Below are positions 15,911 to 29,238 of a stretch of 64,000 nucleotides of DNA, piece by piece. The position numbers and the translations under genes were made by a program. The notes under the pieces were generated by a model. It was given only the letters and a program-made list of their open reading frames with translations, did not search any database and had not been told where the DNA came from. Origin of the DNA: Gemmatimonadales bacterium. GTDB lineage: Bacteria; Gemmatimonadota; Gemmatimonadetes; Gemmatimonadales; GWC2-71-9. The stretch lies in the NCBI GenBank assembly GCA_035631795.1, contig DASQIB010000027.1, positions 1,910 through 65,909 on the forward strand, in the 5' to 3' direction. The number at the start of each line of letters is the position of its first letter. Position 1 is the stretch's first letter.

Positions 15911-17961
15911 CGGTGCCCGCCGGGGTCGGCGGCGTGGCGGATCTCGCGGTCGCCCGAGGCGGCCGCGCGCGCCAGGCGGGCGCGCGCGCGCGGGTTCTGC
16001 TGCCAGCCGGTGACGAGGGCCGCCAGGGCGACGAGGACCTCCGGCGACTTGGGCGGTAGCTTCTCGCGCCCGAACAGTGTTCGGCCGGCCGAGGTCAGCT
16101 GCAACAGCGTCTCGAGGGCTGCCGGCGTCGAGGTGTGGCCGAGCGCCCGGATCGCGAGCACGCGAAGGTCCGTGGGCAGGGCGCGGTCGATCGCACGGCT
16201 GATCAGCAGCGGGACGGCACCGTCCGGTGAACGTTGCAGTGCGACCGCGAGCCCCAGCGCGAGCCGCAGCGTGCGCGGGTCCTGATCCGCAAGGCCGGCG
16301 GCGAGCGCTTCATCCCGCCCTTCGGGAAGCTTGAGCTGCAGCTTGACGGCCTGGAGGCGCACCCGAGCGTCCGCGTGGTGCATGAACCGGACGGCGGAGA
16401 AGCCCGGGGGCACGCCGATCTCCTCGAGCAGCGTCAGCAGGTTGCGAGTCACGTACCACCGCGGGTCGTCGAGCCGCGCGATGACCGTGGGTGCGATGGC
16501 GGTGCCCATCTTCACGAGCTGCGCGAGGAGGCCGCGCCGGGTGCCGCGCGACTCGGCGGTCGCGAGCACGTCGAGCAGCGGCGCTGCTGCCGGCGGACCC
16601 ACGAGCGGCACGACGCGCTCGAGCGTCTTGAAGTCCACCGGCTCGCGGTTCGCGATGCGGCGCACCACGTCCGCTGTGGCGACGCGCCGCCGCACCACCC
16701 CGCTGGCTGCATTTTCCACCGTCACCGTGTCGAGGGCATCGAGCAGCTGCTCCAGCCGTCCTTCGCTGACGACCTGGTCCACCGCCGGATCGAGGCGCGG
16801 GCCCACCGTGCCGATCTCCAGGGCCATGGCGACGATCCGGTCGGGCTCCATGGCGTGGGCATCCGAACGCGCAGGGGTAGCGACCGGCGCGCTCCGCGCC
16901 ATGCGCTGCAACGCGACACCGTACGCTCCCGGGTTCGGATCGGGCAACGTCCAGCCGTCGAGCAGCCGGCGTACTTGATCGCGCAACGCCGCGTCGGCCT
17001 GAGGGCGCACGGCCTCGGCGCCCGTCTCCGCGTGCGCGGCCAGCTTCGAGAGCAGGCGAACGAGGGAGTGCGAGATCGTCTCCTGAGTCGTCTCCGCCGC
17101 GGCCGTGAGGATATCGAGCACGGCGTCCACGGCCATGCCGTCCGTGACATCCGCCACGAACTGGCGACGCTGCGTGAAGTCCCCTCCCATCAGCACGAGC
17201 CGCTGCAGCGCGTCGGGCTTGAGCGTCCGGATGAGCCGGGAGGTGCGACGCCGCAGGGCGGCCGCCTCCGTGCCACCCGCCGTCTTGAGCTCCGCGGCGA
17301 TCTGCAGCAGGTAGCCGACGATCACTTGATCGTAGGCGGCGTCTCCCCCACCCGTGGCGCGCGCATTGATCGCCTGGGCGATCACGGCCGGCTCGGTGGG
17401 CGTTGCGGCGTCCGGGGCGGTGGCGAGGGCCGCGCGGGCGAGTCCCACCCAGAGCTGCGCCCCTCGCGCATCGCCTTCCGCGCGTTCCCCGTCTTGCTCC
17501 GCGAGCTCGAGGCGCTCATAGGTGAGGGGATGCAGCTGCACGTGTGGCCACGCGTTGAGTCGCTCGGCGCCCTCGAGCCCGAGAGGCCGCCCGGTCCGGT
17601 CCGCCTCGGCGGCCAACGCCTTGAGCGCATCCGCCACCTCCGACGGGTCCACGCCCCGCCTGAACGTCACCGCCCCCAGATGGTGGCGGTGAAGCCGGCC
17701 CGCCAGCTCCCGCAGGACAGGGTGTTTGGGATCCGTCGCCACGCCCTCGATGACCAGCTGGTGGCGCGCCACACCGAGCGACAGCGTCGCGCGGTCTTCG
17801 AGCAGCAGCTCGGCCCGCCGGGTCAGCGCCGCCGCGGCGGGCTGGAGGGAGGGGTGGCCCTGGGGATACATGGCGTGCTTGTGCAAGGCGATGGAAAGCT
17901 CGACCAGGAAGTCAGCGAGGGCCCGCGAAAGGGTCGCGCGCTCAGGGGAGGGGGCGGGCAT
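15907..17961 (-). CDS. HEAT-repeat protein with N-terminal domain shared with the HD-GYP protein
   Basis: 684 aa. C-terminal HEAT/PBS-lyase-like repeats (DARVRLQAVKLQL..., LADQDPRTLRLAL...). N-terminus carries an MYPQGHP motif. Confidence 0.7.
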   Translation of the reverse strand: MPAPSPERATLSRALADFLVELSIALHKHAMYPQGHPSLQPAAAALTRRAELLLEDRATLSLGVARHQLVIEGVATDPKHPVLRELAGRLHRHHLGAVTFRRGVDPSEVADALKALAAEADRTGRPLGLEGAERLNAWPHVQLHPLTYERLELAEQDGERAEGDARGAQLWVGLARAALATAPDAATPTEPAVIAQAINARATGGGDAAYDQVIVGYLLQIAAELKTAGGTEAAALRRRTSRLIRTLKPDALQRLVLMGGDFTQRRQFVADVTDGMAVDAVLDILTAAAETTQETISHSLVRLLSKLAAHAETGAEAVRPQADAALRDQVRRLLDGWTLPDPNPGAYGVALQRMARSAPVATPARSDAHAMEPDRIVAMALEIGTVGPRLDPAVDQVVSEGRLEQLLDALDTVTVENAASGVVRRRVATADVVRRIANREPVDFKTLERVVPLVGPPAAAPLLDVLATAESRGTRRGLLAQLVKMGTAIAPTVIARLDDPRWYVTRNLLTLLEEIGVPPGFSAVRFMHHADARVRLQAVKLQLKLPEGRDEALAAGLADQDPRTLRLALGLAVALQRSPDGAVPLLISRAIDRALPTDLRVLAIRALGHTSTPAALETLLQLTSAGRTLFGREKLPPKSPEVLVALAALVTGWQQNPRARARLARAAASGDREIRHAADPGGHR

Positions 17962-22544: not shown

Positions 22545-23471
22545 TCACCGGGCAAACACCAGTAGCACCGTGAGATCGGTGACTCCCCAGGCTGCCAGCG
22601 CGCGATACATACGCCGCTGGTGGGCCGCCCGAGGGAGCGTGTCGCGTCGCCGGTACCACGGAACGAGCACGACAAGCCACGCCGCCAGTGGTCCGAGCAG
22701 CCACGAGGCCGGGCCTCCCCCCTCGAGCACCAGGGCTGCCCAACCGAATAACGTGAAGGCGAGCAGCGTGCACGCGATCGAGACGCTCAGGCTCGCCCTG
22801 AGCCCCAGGAGTAGCGCTAACGTCCGATCGCCGCGCTGGCGGTCCTCCTCCAATTGATACAACTGTGTGAGCGGATAGAGCCCCGCGAATAGTGGGCAAA
22901 ACGCGACGAGGACCAGCGCATGACCAGCGTCGAGCGGACGCCCGGTCGCGGCCCAGGCGGCAAAGGGAGTGAGCGTCCCGAAGCCCCACATGTTGATCAG
23001 CCAGTCGACGCCGGCGACGGCCTTGAAGCGGAACGGCGGGACGGAATAGAGAATCGACAGGATGAAGCAGATGGCGTACGCGATTCGAAACGCGGGCGGG
23101 AGCGCGAACGCCAGCAGCTGGCCGGCCGAGAGGAGGAAGAGGCTGAACGCCAGGAGATGTCGGGGCAACGGGGGTGGCGCGTTCAAGTACCCGATATCGC
23201 CCTCGTCCTTGTCGAACACGGAATTGATGGCGAGCGTGCCGCCGTTGAGAAAGATCACCCAGACGACCAGCGCTAAGAGCGCAGGGAGGAACCGCTCCCC
23301 GCTCCCCGCTCCCTTGAGACCCACCGCGAGCACATATCCCAGGATGGTATGCCCCGCCATGATCGGCCACTCGGCCGGACGCATGTGGAGCAGGTAGGAG
23401 AAGAGGTCGCCAGGTAGCAGGCGGTAGCCCCACTGGCGCCAGGGATTCAGCGCGCGGGGGTTCCCTACCAC
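22545..23471 (-). CDS. UbiA-superfamily prenyltransferase (atypical Asp-rich motif)
   Basis: Track ORF trimmed to the GTG at 23471, overlapping the coaX stop by 7 nt; an alternative ATG lies at 23384. Polytopic. N-terminal YLLHMRPAEWP and NSVFDKDEGD in the position of the first Asp-rich motif. Confidence 0.65.
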   Translation of the reverse strand: MVGNPRALNPWRQWGYRLLPGDLFSYLLHMRPAEWPIMAGHTILGYVLAVGLKGAGSGERFLPALLALVVWVIFLNGGTLAINSVFDKDEGDIGYLNAPPPLPRHLLAFSLFLLSAGQLLAFALPPAFRIAYAICFILSILYSVPPFRFKAVAGVDWLINMWGFGTLTPFAAWAATGRPLDAGHALVLVAFCPLFAGLYPLTQLYQLEEDRQRGDRTLALLLGLRASLSVSIACTLLAFTLFGWAALVLEGGGPASWLLGPLAAWLVVLVPWYRRRDTLPRAAHQRRMYRALAAWGVTDLTVLLVFAR

Positions 23472-24244
23472 GTCAGACCCAGCGCTTTCGCGGCGATGCG
23501 CAAGCCCGTGAGCGTCAGATCGGGGTACACCGATTCGATCTCTCGCACGAGCGGGGCGACGAGGCCCGCCAAGCCGCCGGTGGCGATCACCTGCGGCGTG
23601 GTCCCATTCGGCCACTCGGCCTTGATACGGCGCACGATGCCGTCGACGGCGTCCGCGCTACCGAGGAGGACGCCGGAGCGAATCGCCTCGTCGGTGCGCC
23701 GTCCGATCGTTCGCGCGGGCGGCATCAGGTCGGTGGCGGGGAGCTTGGCCGTCCCGCGAATGAGCGCGTCCGACGCGGTGCGGATGCCGGGCATGATGAC
23801 GCCGCCGAGGAAGTGGCCGTCGGCGGTGATGCAGTCGAATGTCGTCGCGGTGCCGAAGTCCACAACGATCGTGTCGCGCCGAAACAGCTGGGCGGCGGCG
23901 AGCGTGTTGAGAATGCGATCGGCGCCGACCTGCAGGGGCTCCTCCACGTCGAGCGTGATCGGGAGCTTCGAGCGACCGTCCACCACCACCGGGCGCACCG
24001 TCGTGGCCCGCTCGACCGCCTCGCACAGGCCCTGCGTGACCGGTGGGACGACGGACGCGACGACGGCCGCGCGCACCTCCTGCGTGGAGCGGCCCTCCTG
24101 CGCCAGGTACGACGTCAGTGTGGCCGCCCACTCGTCGGGGGTGCGCGACGGCGTGGTCGTCAGGCGCCAATGCGCCTCGAGGCTGTCACGCCGGAACAGC
24201 CCGACTTTCGTTTCGGTGTTGTTGATGTTGATGGCGAGGAGCAT
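23465..24244 (-). CDS. coaX: type III pantothenate kinase
   Basis: 259 aa with MLLAININNTETKVGLF and DFGTATTFD, in the ASKHA fold CoaX family. Confidence 0.9.
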   Translation of the reverse strand: MLLAININNTETKVGLFRRDSLEAHWRLTTTPSRTPDEWAATLTSYLAQEGRSTQEVRAAVVASVVPPVTQGLCEAVERATTVRPVVVDGRSKLPITLDVEEPLQVGADRILNTLAAAQLFRRDTIVVDFGTATTFDCITADGHFLGGVIMPGIRTASDALIRGTAKLPATDLMPPARTIGRRTDEAIRSGVLLGSADAVDGIVRRIKAEWPNGTTPQVIATGGLAGLVAPLVREIESVYPDLTLTGLRIAAKALGLTW

Positions 24245-24257
24245 GCGGAAAAGCTAC

Positions 24258-24317
24258 AGAGGTCGGTAGAGGTCGGTAGAGGTCGGGAGAGGCCGGTAGA
24301 GGTCGGGAGTGGAGGGG
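24258..24317 (+). repeat. left arm: tandem decamers AGAGGTCGGT (5 good copies plus 1 degenerate)
   Basis: agaggtcggt agaggtcggt agaggtcggg agaggccggt agaggtcggg agtggagggg. The array ends 14 nt from the coaX ATG. Confidence 0.85.
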
Positions 24318-24400
24318 AACGCGCTCAATCGCCTGCTTTCGCTACTGCTTGCAACGATTCGGTCCTCACGGCCCGAGACGCCGACGTTACGTTGTTGCGC

Positions 24401-24709
24401 GTGCCTCCTTATGAGCGTCTCCGCGCATGGCGAGAATGTCATAGGCTCGTGCTCGAGACCTACCGAGCGACGAAGTCATTCCCGAGAGAAGAGACCTACG
24501 GCCTGACATCCCAGGCGCGGCGGGCCGAGTGTCGCCGCTTCCTTGACATCACGATTGGTTCGCTGGCGGAACTTGGTTACACGTTCCGCGTCGCACGGGA
24601 GCTCGGCATGTTGCCCGGCCCGGATTGGGAGGTGCTGGAAGATCTGCGAAGGCGGGCGGGCTTTCTGACGTGGCGACTGTATCGGTCCTTGGGGAACACA
24701 GGACAGTGA
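24401..24709 (+). CDS. four-helix-bundle protein (23S rRNA IVS protein / Avd family), internally deleted variant
   Basis: GTG at 24401 gives 102 aa: PPYERLRAWRECHRLVLETYRATKSFPREETYGLTSQARRAE-CRRFLDITIGSLAELGYTFRVARELGML. This matches the family pattern but lacks the central S-I-x-x-N-I-A-E-G segment. No Shine-Dalgarno was seen. Confidence 0.65.
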   Translation: MPPYERLRAWRECHRLVLETYRATKSFPREETYGLTSQARRAECRRFLDITIGSLAELGYTFRVARELGMLPGPDWEVLEDLRRRAGFLTWRLYRSLGNTGQ

Positions 24710-24714
24710 GAGGT

Positions 24715-24763
24715 CCCACCTCTACCGACTTCTACGACTTCTACCGACCTCTTCCGACCTCTA
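24715..24763 (-). repeat. right arm: 5 inverted copies of the decamer (CCGACCTCTA units)
   Basis: cccacctcta ccgacttcta cgacttcta ccgacctctt ccgacctcta. The last CTA is the birA stop codon on the minus strand. A small hairpin, agaggt-ccc-acctct, lies at 24709-24723. Confidence 0.85.
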
Positions 24764-25501
24764 CGCCAGCTCCACGTGCCCCTCGCGCAGCGCGATCGTC
24801 CCCGCGCCGAGGTCGACGAGGAGCGCGCCGTCGGGGCGGACGCCCTGCGCTCGACCGACGGCGGGCGCGCGCAGCTGGCGGCCGCGGAGCCAGTCGCGGG
24901 CCGCGAAGGCGGCGCTTTCGCGCTCGCTCAACGCGGACGTACCGGAGGCCAGACCGGCGAGCGCCGGCACCAGCCGATCGAGGACGTCGAGCCGGCGCAC
25001 CGCGGGCAGCCATTCCACTAGCGCGACCGCCCGTTGCGCGACCTCTCGGGGAATCGGGTTGCACACGTTGATCCCCACGCCCAACCCCAGCCACTGTAGC
25101 GTTTCCCCGTGCCAGCGGCCTTCGCACAGGATCCCGGCGAGCTTTCGCTCCGCCAGCAGGACGTCGTTCGGCCACTTGAGGCGCGTCTCGGCCCGGCCCA
25201 GGAGACCGTCGACCGCGTCGGCCACCGCCAGGCCAACGCGCACGGACAGAACGCCCAGCTCGGCCCGTGTCGGGCGGAGCAGCACCCCGAGCCACACGCC
25301 GCCCGGCGGGGAGTGCCACGTCCGGCCGTCGCGGCCGCGGCCAGCCGTCTGCTGCTCCGCGATGACCACGCTGCTGGCAGGCGCTCCCTGCGACCCGAGG
25401 TCGTGAATGGCGTTCAGGGCGGAATCGAGTGCGTGGAAGAGTGCGCACTGCGGCACGCCCCACCGCCCCGCCAAGTCGGCCGCCGGTACCCCGTCGAGCA
25501 T
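24761..25501 (-). CDS. birA: biotin--[acetyl-CoA-carboxylase] ligase (no HTH domain)
   Basis: Track ORF trimmed to the ATG at 25501, giving 246 aa. QTAGRGRDGRTWHSPPGG and KWPNDV motifs. The start overlaps the uppP stop by 1 nt. Confidence 0.85.
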   Translation of the reverse strand: MLDGVPAADLAGRWGVPQCALFHALDSALNAIHDLGSQGAPASSVVIAEQQTAGRGRDGRTWHSPPGGVWLGVLLRPTRAELGVLSVRVGLAVADAVDGLLGRAETRLKWPNDVLLAERKLAGILCEGRWHGETLQWLGLGVGINVCNPIPREVAQRAVALVEWLPAVRRLDVLDRLVPALAGLASGTSALSERESAAFAARDWLRGRQLRAPAVGRAQGVRPDGALLVDLGAGTIALREGHVELA

Positions 25502-26283
25502 CAGCGGCGCCACACGGCGTACGCGATCGTGAGCACGCCTGCGATCCAATTGTAGGGCGCGAACGCGTAAAACCGGCCGCGTTTGAGGAGCGCCACGAGA
25601 AACCGAATCGACCAGATCCCGCCCGCGAAGGCGACCGCGAAACTCACCGCCAGCGGGACCGCGCCAACCGCTGCGACGTTCACGGCCATGTGTCGCCCTT
25701 CGACCAGGGCCGCGCCCGCGATCACCGGAATGGCGAGGAGGAAGCTGAATTCCGCCGCGGCGGCGGGCCCGAGTCCGGCCCATAGCGCCGCGCACACCGT
25801 CGAGCCGGAGCGGGACACGCCGCGAAACAGCGCAGCGACCGCCTGGGCGAAGCCGATCCCCACCGCCGCGCCGACGGAGGGCTGGGGGCGCTCCCCCGCC
25901 AACCGTCGCGTCGACCAGTTCATGAATCCCGTGACGAGGAACCCCAACCCAACGAGCACGAGCGACGCTGCCGCCTCGACCTGCTGATGGAAGACCACCC
26001 CGATCACACCGGCCGGAATCGTCGCGAGCAGCAACAGGCCCGCGACGCGGAGGTCCTCGGGCCGTCGCGCCAGGACGCCGCGGACGATGGACCACAGCCG
26101 GCCTCCGTACACGACCAGCACGGAGCCGAGCGTGGCCACGTGAAGGGCGACCTCCACGAACACGCCAGGCGTGTGGACGCCCGTGATGACCTCGAGCACG
26201 CGGAGGTGGCCGGAGCTCGATACCGGGAGAAACTCGGTGAGGCCCTGCACGAGCCCCAGCACCAGACCCTGCCAGAGCGTCAC
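25501..26283 (-). CDS. uppP: undecaprenyl-diphosphate phosphatase
   Basis: Trimmed to the GTG at 26283 (GTGA overlap). LGLVQGLTEFLPVSSSGHL signature. Polytopic. Confidence 0.9.
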   Translation of the reverse strand: MTLWQGLVLGLVQGLTEFLPVSSSGHLRVLEVITGVHTPGVFVEVALHVATLGSVLVVYGGRLWSIVRGVLARRPEDLRVAGLLLLATIPAGVIGVVFHQQVEAAASLVLVGLGFLVTGFMNWSTRRLAGERPQPSVGAAVGIGFAQAVAALFRGVSRSGSTVCAALWAGLGPAAAAEFSFLLAIPVIAGAALVEGRHMAVNVAAVGAVPLAVSFAVAFAGGIWSIRFLVALLKRGRFYAFAPYNWIAGVLTIAYAVWRR

Positions 26284-28224: not shown

Positions 28225-29238
28225 TTAGCTTCGCGCGCTAGGGAGCGGGGAGCGGGGAGCGGTACGCTCCTTCCACCGGGCGACGATTTGGTCGGCGACG
28301 ACACCCGGCTCCGCGCTCGCATCCAGAGTCCACACCTCGACGGAACCGCTCCCCGCTCCCTGCTCCCGGCTGAGTTGGTGTCGAAACCACGTCTCTTGTC
28401 GTTTCGCATAGCGTCGCGTGGCGATGAAGATCGCCTCCCGCAACCCGTGCTCCGGCAGCCGTCCGTCGAGCATAGCGACCACCTCCCGATAGCCCACCCC
28501 ATCGAGTCCCGGCCCGGACGGGGGCGCGCCCGCCGCCAGAAGCCCGCGCACCTCGTCCACGAGGCCCGCCGCGAGCATCGCGTCCACCCGCGCGGCGATG
28601 CGCCGTTGCAACGCGGCACGCGGCAAGGTGAGATGAATGTACCATGGCCGCATGACACCGCTCGCGCGTGCGTGCGCCTGCCACCACGTGAGCCCGCGGC
28701 CTGTGAGGAGCGCCACCTCTACCGCCCGCGCAGCCCGTTGTCTCCCGCCGCCGGCGTAGCGCCGGTCCAGCCGCGCCGCCCAATGCGCGAGCTGCGGCGC
28801 CGCCACCGCATCGGTCCACGCACGCAGGCGCGCGCGCCGAGCGGCATCGAGTGGCGGCTGGTGGAACAACCCGTCGGTGAGCGCCCGGATGTACAAGCCG
28901 GTTCCACCGACCACGACAGGCTGCCGCCCAGCGACACGAATCTCGTCCAGCCACCCGGCCGCCTCCCGCGCGAAGCGGCCGGCGCTGTACGGTTCGCCGG
29001 GCGAGATCTGATCCACGCCCATCGTCGGCACGCGGGCGCGAAGTTCCCGGTCCGGCTTCGCCGTTCCGATGTCGAGCCCCCGGTACACCTGCCGGGCGTC
29101 GGCGGAGATGATGGTCACCGACTCGCGCGCCGCCCACGCCGCCGCCACGGCCGTCTTCCCGACAGCGGTAGGACCGACGAGCACCGGCACGAGTCGAGTG
29201 CGAGCGTCAGGCTCTCCCAAAGCGTCGCTCCAGCTCAT
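28225..29238 (-). CDS. miaA: tRNA dimethylallyltransferase
   Basis: Trimmed to the ATG at 29238, giving 337 aa. P-loop GPTAVGKT, ISADARQVYRGLDIGTAKP, and RRYAKRQETWFR. The start lies 32 nt inside the mutL 3' end. Confidence 0.9.
   Translation of the reverse strand: MSWSDALGEPDARTRLVPVLVGPTAVGKTAVAAAWAARESVTIISADARQVYRGLDIGTAKPDRELRARVPTMGVDQISPGEPYSAGRFAREAAGWLDEIRVAGRQPVVVGGTGLYIRALTDGLFHQPPLDAARRARLRAWTDAVAAPQLAHWAARLDRRYAGGGRQRAARAVEVALLTGRGLTWWQAHARASGVMRPWYIHLTLPRAALQRRIAARVDAMLAAGLVDEVRGLLAAGAPPSGPGLDGVGYREVVAMLDGRLPEHGLREAIFIATRRYAKRQETWFRHQLSREQGAGSGSVEVWTLDASAEPGVVADQIVARWKERTAPRSPLPSARS
28241..28263 (+). repeat. GGGGAGC heptamer array (arm 1) inside miaA 3' end
   Basis: gggagcggggagcggggagcggt. 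Inverted partner at 28345-28367. Confidence 0.8.
28345..28367 (-). repeat. GGGGAGC heptamer array (arm 2, inverted)
   Basis: accgctccccgctccctgctccc is the reverse complement of arm 1 with one mismatch. Confidence 0.8.

Follow-up and report, generated by a model that had tools for sequence, protein, structure and literature searches.

The four-helix-bundle protein family PF05635 is known mainly from the intervening sequences (IVSs) of ribosomal RNA (rRNA), from Avd, a protein of diversity-generating retroelements (DGRs), and from an unexplained gene described as CRISPR-associated; the family is very large and its function is unassigned. IVSs of 23S rRNA with an S23p/PF05635 open reading frame (ORF) are found in Leptospira, Coxiella, Brucella and Azospirillum. 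Here we analyzed a 64,000-nt stretch of a contig from a bacterium placed in Gemmatimonadales (DASQIB010000027.1, positions 1,910 to 65,909 of the forward strand; hereafter the window, in whose coordinates positions are given), in which a PF05635 gene occupies the spacer between birA and coaX. We consider it fairly probable that this spacer is a resident and decaying cassette of the IVS type lying outside rRNA, in which an autonomous PF05635 gene and its 5' region are held between inverted arrays of short tandem repeats.

Among described systems, the IVSs of 23S rRNA are the nearest in layout. The Coxiella IVS has a 28-bp terminal stem that is cleaved by RNase III in vitro and within which the ends mapped by rapid amplification of cDNA ends fall; it carries three to four GACAGAT heptamers whose copy number varies between strains, and its ORF is decaying (PMC4990558). 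Like the 23S IVSs, the cassette in the window has an S23p-family ORF looped out by a long terminal stem, short tandem-repeat arms of variable copy number, an ORF that is often decaying and no transposase, and the AGAGGACGG-type units of the Azospirillum IVS are almost identical to those of the family to which the window cassette belongs. In contrast to the 23S IVSs, the window copy lies in the birA-coaX mRNA spacer and not in helix 25 or 45 of 23S rRNA, its arms are longer and more regular (5-6 x 10 nt), cassettes at this site are found in both orientations relative to host transcription, and excision by RNase III would be assumed for them by analogy.

A second point of comparison is offered by the short tandem repeats of Xanthomonas (GGGAATC) and Nostoc (GGGGA(C/T)T), which have been treated as quadruplex-forming simple repeats (Rehm et al. 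2015, PMC4692102). These repeats are situated between ORFs of the same direction, where the sequence is G-rich past stop codons and, on the antisense strand, ahead of start codons, and 70-75 convergent inverted pairs are present per Xanthomonas genome, with a preference for four units (PMC4692102). PF05635 cassettes share with them the short G-rich tandem units, the frequent convergent inverted pairs of about four units and the G-rich sequence just past stops and C-rich sequence just ahead of starts; indeed, the GGGAATC arrays around the Xanthomonas orthologue of XCC0516 are exactly the repeat of Rehm et al. The window units differ in length, being 10-mers, and in their tracts, which are GG instead of GGG. 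The searched text of PMC4692102 makes no mention of enclosed four-helix-bundle genes or of IVSs. Cyanobacterial short tandemly repeated repetitive (STRR) heptamers likewise consist of short G-rich tandem units resembling the arms of PF05635 cassettes.

Two further classes of elements were considered and rejected. Avd has a homologous four-helix-bundle fold (PF05635/cd16375; 2GSC versus 4DWL; PMC10053308). Unlike in DGRs, no reverse transcriptase, template repeat or variable repeat is found near the cassette (syntenic contigs, 5 kb), and a DGR reading was dropped for want of a reverse transcriptase domain and of a template/variable repeat pair. To our knowledge, there is no report of Avd genes enclosed by inverted tandem arrays. 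Repetitive extragenic palindromes (REP), the REPIN hairpins derived from them, their associated transposases (RAYT) and miniature transposable elements with inverted repeats (MITEs) resemble the cassette in that they are small, form hairpins and collect between genes at their junctions. The cassette arms are, in contrast, tandem arrays that differ from copy to copy rather than dispersed near-identical palindromes, and the cargo is not a Y1 transposase; as the repeat unit occurs only here in the window and arm units differ among paralogous loci, this reading was rejected as well. In the searchable literature, the coverage of which is incomplete so that a prior account is possible, cassettes outside rRNA that have inverted tandem arrays are not described, and the common architecture of the cassette family appears not to have been described as such before.

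A PF05635 gene between inverted decamer arrays

The spacer extends for 516 nt from the coaX ATG (24242-24244, minus strand) to the birA stop codon TAG (24761-24763, minus strand). The first-pass annotation, made from the letters alone, had described it as a single cassette of inverted arrays and a PF05635 ORF, with five to six tandem decamers on the left and about five reverse complements on the right, and this layout holds both by Tandem Repeats Finder and by inspection. The coaX-proximal array has a period of 10 and 4.9 copies of the unit AGAGGTCGGT at 24258-24306 and reaches 24317 through a degenerate sixth unit; it is G-rich on the plus strand and forms the 5' arm on the ORF strand. The birA-proximal array (24715-24763), the 3' arm on the ORF strand, is made of about five reverse-complement units ACCGACCTCT with C-to-T variants, one of them only 9 nt long, and is placed by Tandem Repeats Finder at 24718-24764 with period 10, 4.8 copies and the unit ACCTCTACCG. 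A two-unit pattern occurs 7 times in the window, against 0.02 expected, and all occurrences are in this spacer. The birA stop codon overlaps the birA-proximal array, its TAG being the first bases of a repeat unit as previously noted, and the coaX-proximal array is 13 nt from the coaX ATG (14 nt by the earlier count). These 13 nt are the host junction GTAGCTTTTCCGC (24245-24257, minus strand), which holds the -10-like box TAGCTT.

In the minimum-free-energy fold of 24240-24770, the arrays pair as the outermost stem, of about 50 bp, on both strands. The fold reaches -231.1 kcal/mol on the minus strand (z = -5.0) and -249.2 kcal/mol on the plus strand (z = -4.2), and none of 100 shuffles folded as well as the native sequence, in agreement with the expectation that the arms would pair better than shuffled controls. 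On the minus strand the base of the stem brings the birA stop to about 10 nt before the coaX AUG.

Within the arrays, the cassette 5' region (24318-24400, plus strand) precedes the ORF and is conserved among orthologues in both orientations. It contains a conserved TTGCAACGAT motif at 24349-24358 and a TACGTT box at 24388-24393, 7 nt upstream of the ORF start codon, and both motifs may be functional. The ORF itself (102 aa, plus strand, GTG at 24401 to TGA at 24709) matches PF05635 with 51.7 bits (cut-off 33.8) and TIGR02436 with 45.6 bits (cut-off 24), which places it in the family to which it had been assigned by eye. It also matches the crystallised XCC0516 (PDB 2GSC, a pentameric four-helix bundle) with E = 9.4e-12, compared with E = 4.5e-20 for the full-length relative P0001.

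The Pfam match of the window ORF falls in two pieces because 18 residues (AFSAAANIVEGSAKRGxR), present in all homologues and orthologues of about 120 aa, are absent from it. A DNA alignment with the closest relative, L004 (loci are designated by L numbers), reveals a clean 54-nt in-frame deletion with its junction at 24526/24527. The family motif is GxxRxxxSxxxNxxE (PMC3936711); the deleted segment carries its S...N..E part, which in XCC0516 corresponds to the last portion of helix 2 together with the loop behind it, and the window ORF is left without a complete domain bearing the signature motif. Since the deletion removes the signature helix, the window copy is probably a dead, damaged member of the family. 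The remainder of the ORF is still constrained (dN/dS 0.09-0.19 against orthologues), so that the deletion looks recent. Among intact ORFs the median dN/dS is 0.14 over 349 pairs, which indicates that full-length copies are under purifying selection and that the protein matters to something. The cassette stands apart from its host genes in composition: it has a GC content of 62%, and the GC content at third codon positions of the ORF is 0.69, compared with about 0.9 in coaX and birA. The window copy is a decaying remnant, with no sign of a role as a regulator of birA-coaX.

Junction states and orientation among relatives

The junction was compared in 12 genomic and 80 metagenomic Gemmatimonadales loci, the coaX genes of which are 82-99% identical. 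Empty birA-coaX sites measure 16-62 nt, typically 35 nt (TAG-CGGCC...GTCTATCTTAGCGGCGCC-ATG), and spacers bearing a PF05635 cassette measure 509-623 nt. Where the cassette has been lost, remaining repeat units or the 3' end of the ORF mark the site as a footprint. One such footprint (L079, 45 nt) is found among the closest relatives of the window; another (L135, 51 nt) still has the initial unit of the left array and the final units of the right one and belongs to a sister of the full-cassette carriers L006 and L133; and three spacers of 91 nt (L088, L136 and L137) retain the last ~30 nt of the ORF. L135 and L088 are deletion derivatives of the cassette. Junction states are intermixed among near-identical hosts on the birA+coaX tree, as exemplified by L090 and L091, in which near-identical host genes flank an empty site in one case and a full cassette in the other. 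This intermixing argues that the 516-nt spacer is an insertion into a junction of normally about 35 nt and is dispensable for the host; the insertion suspected in the first-pass annotation is thus matched by empty 35-nt sites in close relatives. Overall, the cassette is polymorphic among close relatives in presence, orientation, arm length and integrity.

These states also bear on the possibility, raised in the same annotation, that the stem acts in processing or uncoupling on the minus-strand birA-coaX transcript. In its full form, this view would have the stem benefit the host by separating the expression of birA from that of coaX, with the ORF being incidental. The minus-strand stem does form and links the birA stop to the vicinity of the coaX AUG, some hairpin is present at this junction in most relatives, and cleavage of IVS stems by RNase III provides a precedent. 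Nevertheless, the spacer is a bare 35 nt in many relatives that are just as close, which means that the stem is not required for birA-coaX, and the state differs between near-identical hosts. The strong purifying selection on the ORF argues that it is not incidental, and the arms carry no strand-specific wobble signature (see below). In addition, every allele, be it empty, hairpin or cassette, keeps a -10-like box (TAGCTT, TATCTT or TATACT) 6-10 nt ahead of the coaX ATG; this box, a candidate promoter element, suggests that coaX may not need read-through. The proposed processing role is therefore unsupported, and we regard it as improbable.

Other relatives carry unrelated insertions at the same place. 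In approximately 17 relatives, spacers contain ORF-less hairpins of 104-147 nt, in which 3-5 units of ~12 nt, AACGTCACGGAG, are matched by their complement (z = -7.0; L093-L103, L112, L124, L130, L131, L139, L141 and L143). Their copy number differs between near-identical hosts and, among the fetched loci, they are found at this junction only. In L083, L113 and L123 (spacer ~1790-2500), REP-like hairpins GAGGGACTGTAAGTCCC and GCGTCCTGAAGGACGC surround a RAYT-like gene (motif HVHVVLQ); REP-like hairpins without a gene occupy the junction in L120, and L101 is also listed with the REP-like group. Unrelated genes are found at the junction in L087, L115 and L147. The birA-coaX junction is a hot spot for hairpin elements generally.

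The cassette is co-directional with birA-coaX in approximately 17 loci and opposite in approximately 13, including the window; the opposite-strand placement of the ORF, pointed out earlier, is correct for the window and does not extend to the relatives as a general state. In either orientation, the birA side opens with G-rich units and the coaX side closes with C-rich units, after which follows a common host junction (...CCTCTGTAGCTTT...ATG or ...CTTCTACCATCTT...ATG). Between opposite orientations, the conserved 5' region and the ORF are reversed between the arrays and the flank-proximal units are constant, so that a segment bounded by inverted repeats occurs in both orientations between genomes. 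The two orientations are intermixed in the ORF tree, which implies at least five changes. Cassettes at birA-coaX are at least ~70% identical to one another at the nucleotide level, oppositely oriented relatives show 13-15% ORF sequence divergence, and copies at most other sites have no more than 58% protein identity to the window ORF. Most simply, these comparisons can be read as a single insertion long ago and several later inversions, each by recombination within the inverted arrays. It is unlikely that the orientations are an assembly artefact, as the arms of ~50-60 nt are shorter than the k = 141 suggested by the 'k141' contig names in many of these assemblies, and opposite copies also differ in sequence.

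A programmed invertible switch, in which recombination between the arrays toggles the ORF between a sense, co-transcribed state and an antisense state in the manner of phase variation, would account for two orientations that are both common (~17 versus 13) and phylogenetically intermixed, with breakpoints inside the arrays. On the other hand, no invertase or tyrosine recombinase is present in the gene calls within 5 kb on the syntenic contigs, and the arms are neither perfect nor equal (3 versus 13 units in L142) and vary from genome to genome. The 13-15% divergence between orientations moreover indicates old and rare events rather than rapid switching, and in the other phyla sampled the gene is almost always co-directional with its neighbours. 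We consider such a switch very improbable.

Further changes at the site include arm slippage, as in L142 with its very unequal arms (3 versus ~13 units), and decay, as in L081 (C-terminal truncation), L014 (internal stop) and the window (54-nt deletion). The host genes of L004 and L080 are 97.5% identical, whereas their ORFs are 72% identical, a discordance that points to allele exchange and suggests that recombination or replacement is frequent at this locus. A second site, between an amidohydrolase-like gene and rpmA (convergent) in L011 (2860-3440), carries a cassette that belongs to the birA-coaX clade and shares its type of unit, with arrays that touch the stop codons of both neighbours. 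Together with the discordance between host and cassette trees, this second site is indirect evidence of mobility.

Inverted arrays around PF05635 genes in other loci and phyla

The first-pass annotation had asked whether other copies of the family are flanked in the same way. The fetched Gemmatimonadota loci contained 82 distinct PF05635 genes with enough flank, and arms were called where an upstream segment was complementary to a segment just past the stop codon with z > 6 relative to shuffles. Matched arms were found at 61 of these 82 genes, a strongly positive answer that extends to other phyla. The arms have a median length of 39 nt; at the median, 79 nt separate the end of the 5' arm from the start codon, and 8 nt the stop codon from the beginning of the 3' arm. 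Units vary by locus (AGAGGTCGGT, GGCGGACA, GGACGGCC, GGGCGGTA, GATGGGCG and others) and match between the arms of each locus, mostly with periods of 8 or 10 and a median of 3.8 units per arm. Quadruplex-forming repeats in the sense of Rehm et al. call for four or more tandem units with G tracts of three or longer; the 5-6 units of the window have GG tracts only, and units with GGG or GGGG occur in other paralogues. In all 61 loci the upstream arm is G-rich on the ORF strand (mean G 53%, C 15%). Since the arms are complementary, the G-rich arm comes first and the C-rich arm last for transcripts of either direction. This G-first order might keep Rho from loading on a C-rich arm that is exposed, let the repeated units nucleate quickly or allow quadruplexes to form; all three are hypotheses.

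Layouts in other phyla were judged by inspection. In Marivirga (Bacteroidota), CAAGTTGN octamers adjoin the stop and start codons of the neighbours, and a cassette with GGGCAGGA arrays is present on plasmid 1 of Gemmatirosa kalamazoonensis KBS708 (L165). On cyanobacterial plasmids, approximately 9 of 15 loci are clear, with heptamers such as GGGTGTA, GGGAACA, TCAGGAG and GGAGATAA, and the gene lies between cas6 and cas4, cmr2 and cmr3, an integrase and a hypothetical gene, or other pairs. In Xanthomonas (L166-L168, ~1480-1935), the accB-accC operon contains the XCC0516 orthologue between its two genes, bordered by GGGAATC arrays on one side and the complementary arrays on the other. The IVS in 23S rRNA helix 45 on an Azospirillum lipoferum replicon (L162) has arms of CAGAGGACGG-type tandem units, and this IVS and the tandem-heptamer stem of Coxiella (PMC4990558) bear out the IVS-like anatomy ascribed to the spacer at first sight. 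In these samples from other phyla, the gene was almost always co-directional with its neighbours. Judging from these layouts, the architecture is family-wide and found in at least four phyla, covering Gemmatimonadota paralogues, cyanobacteria, Bacteroidota, Xanthomonas and 23S IVSs, with arrays that adjoin the stop and start codons of neighbouring genes; a search with a single PF05635 subfamily alone returned more than 7,700 clusters.

The family is listed as CRISPR-associated under the name 23S_rRNA_IVP (PMC3936711, PMC10910872). In L159 and L177 (cas6|cas4) and in L163 (cmr2|cmr3), repeat-flanked PF05635 genes are inserted between adjacent cas genes, with ~45 tandem ACAGGTG/ACAGGGA units upstream in L177. 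These examples look like cassette insertions into operon junctions, and the CRISPR association may reflect insertion preference rather than function. A CRISPR-like reading was rejected.

Readings of the cassette and its surroundings

Under the IVS-type reading, transcripts crossing the cassette from either side would have arms that pair into a long stem and juxtapose the host flanks, by analogy with IVSs, and this stem could be cut by RNase III as in rRNA. Such processing of the window-type stem, suggested by the same analogy, would explain why tight operon junctions and rRNA helices can tolerate insertions. In the DNA itself, the repeat arms would drive slippage, inversion and hairpin-mediated deletion. 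The protein, by homology a pentameric and presumably nucleic-acid-binding four-helix bundle, would serve the element and not birA or coaX.

Several observations weigh against this reading. A second array pair lies at the miaA 3' end in the window (28236-28378), with inverted arrays and no separate ORF: three copies of GGGAGCG (28241-28262) and 3.7 copies of CCGCTCC (28346-28371) form a ~26-bp stem (z = -4.4 and -4.3) that encloses the last ~25 miaA codons and ends ~15 nt from the start of the next gene. At the homologous miaA positions L003 has a different heptamer (CGTCAGT/ACTGACG) and L001 has the downstream array only. Given ORF-less arrays of unrelated units at both birA-coaX and miaA, the arrays might be a host feature and the gene a mere occupant. 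Selection for pairing in RNA leaves no trace in the arms either: over 2,600 aligned positions in the 61 loci, mismatches compatible with G.U pairing number 86 on the ORF strand and 88 on the opposite strand, with 154 transversions, so that neither strand has an excess and strand-specific RNA selection on the arms was rejected. Homogenisation at the DNA level, by template switching or arm-to-arm gene conversion, may fit the complementarity at least as well as selection for RNA pairing. Finally, the element has neither a transposase nor a recombinase, and a signature at the target site was not observed, which is why support for mobility is indirect. When own-arm complementarity was set against cross-locus complementarity among birA-coaX orthologues, the mean scores (50 versus 43) did not tell the two apart, as the (T)AGAGG-N-CGG unit family is common to all of them.

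The first of these points can be developed into an explanation in which the arrays are independent host hairpin or G-quadruplex repeats marking operon junctions, equivalent to the inverted G-rich heptamer pairs known from Xanthomonas and Nostoc, with the PF05635 gene as a passenger that preferentially lands or survives inside them. It would accommodate the ~12-nt arrays (z = -7.0) in the same junction of ~17 relatives and the heptamer pair at miaA with its different unit in L003, and it agrees with the 70-75 inverted pairs per Xanthomonas genome, a number far exceeding that of four-helix-bundle genes, and with the preferred four units (PMC4692102) as compared with the median of 3.8 here. It is harder to reconcile with the footprints and the 91-nt spacer of L088, which are demonstrably cassette remnants, and with the arm unit type, which moves with the ORF clade to the L011 site and into 23S rRNA (L162). 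Furthermore, the window units have GG tracts only and would make weak quadruplexes, and each array is matched by a complementary arm. We therefore hold the passenger explanation to be rather unlikely, and retain the IVS-type cassette as the preferred reading.

As a more tentative extension, which we put forward as a conjecture, PF05635 cassettes could form one ubiquitous and unrecognised class of self-looping elements, comprising the 23S IVSs, part of the STRR arrays and the Xanthomonas 'G4' pairs, which are commonly regarded as separate, as well as the genes in cas, accBC and other operons. The G-first polarity and the repeat nature of the arms would then be adaptive: transcripts from either direction would quickly fold the insertion out, the C-rich arm would be sequestered from Rho and the stem would be removable by RNase III, and transcripts starting inside would end at the unpaired C-rich arm. 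The packaging of the gene in a hairpin of G-first tandem repeats may account for the presence of functionally unlinked PF05635 genes between cas6 and cas4, cmr2 and cmr3, accB and accC, and birA and coaX, and for part of a long-standing puzzle, the short G-rich tandem arrays of cyanobacteria and xanthomonads. Xanthomonas accB|accC and Gemmatirosa are examples of tractable systems in which to ask how an insertion in an essential operon or an rRNA helix becomes harmless, and what role the protein plays. The main value lies in the family-wide pattern and the natural series of junction states rather than in the window copy.

The host genes flanking the cassette are, downstream, coaX, encoding a type III pantothenate kinase (23465-24244, minus strand; PF03309, E = 1.3e-61), and, upstream, birA, encoding a biotin-protein ligase (24761-25513, minus strand; PF03099, E = 5.2e-21; its start is approximate, and orthologues have 250 aa). 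By gene calls, the syntenic contigs carry at least 14 co-directional genes across 10 kb, most junctions being overlapping or short-gapped, and Pfam identifies MutL, MiaA, GT4, UbiA, UppP, BirA, CoaX, UbiA, NlpC/P60 and GroES/EL within 5 kb. The gene calls in this 5-kb interval include no reverse transcriptase, recombinase, invertase or tyrosine recombinase, and an Rfam scan of the 64-kb window returned two tRNAs only, with no rRNA and no RNA family at the spacer; the reported lack of rRNA and reverse transcriptase nearby thus stands. No further long repeats were found around the cassette, and scans of 24100-24900 for sigma-70 promoters and intrinsic terminators returned nothing. Elsewhere in the window, ARAGORN called a 91-nt tRNA-Ser (cga) at 15925-16015 on the plus strand that is absent from the Rfam output and overlaps a CG-rich simple repeat (15957-15992); it is likely a false positive. 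As a separate observation, coaX and the cassette ORF lack a Shine-Dalgarno sequence, and the -10-like boxes TAGCTT, TATCTT, TATACT and TACGTT are located 6-10 nt ahead of their start codons (24245-24257 and 24388-24400 in the window; L079-L157), which suggests leaderless or near-leaderless mRNAs in this lineage.

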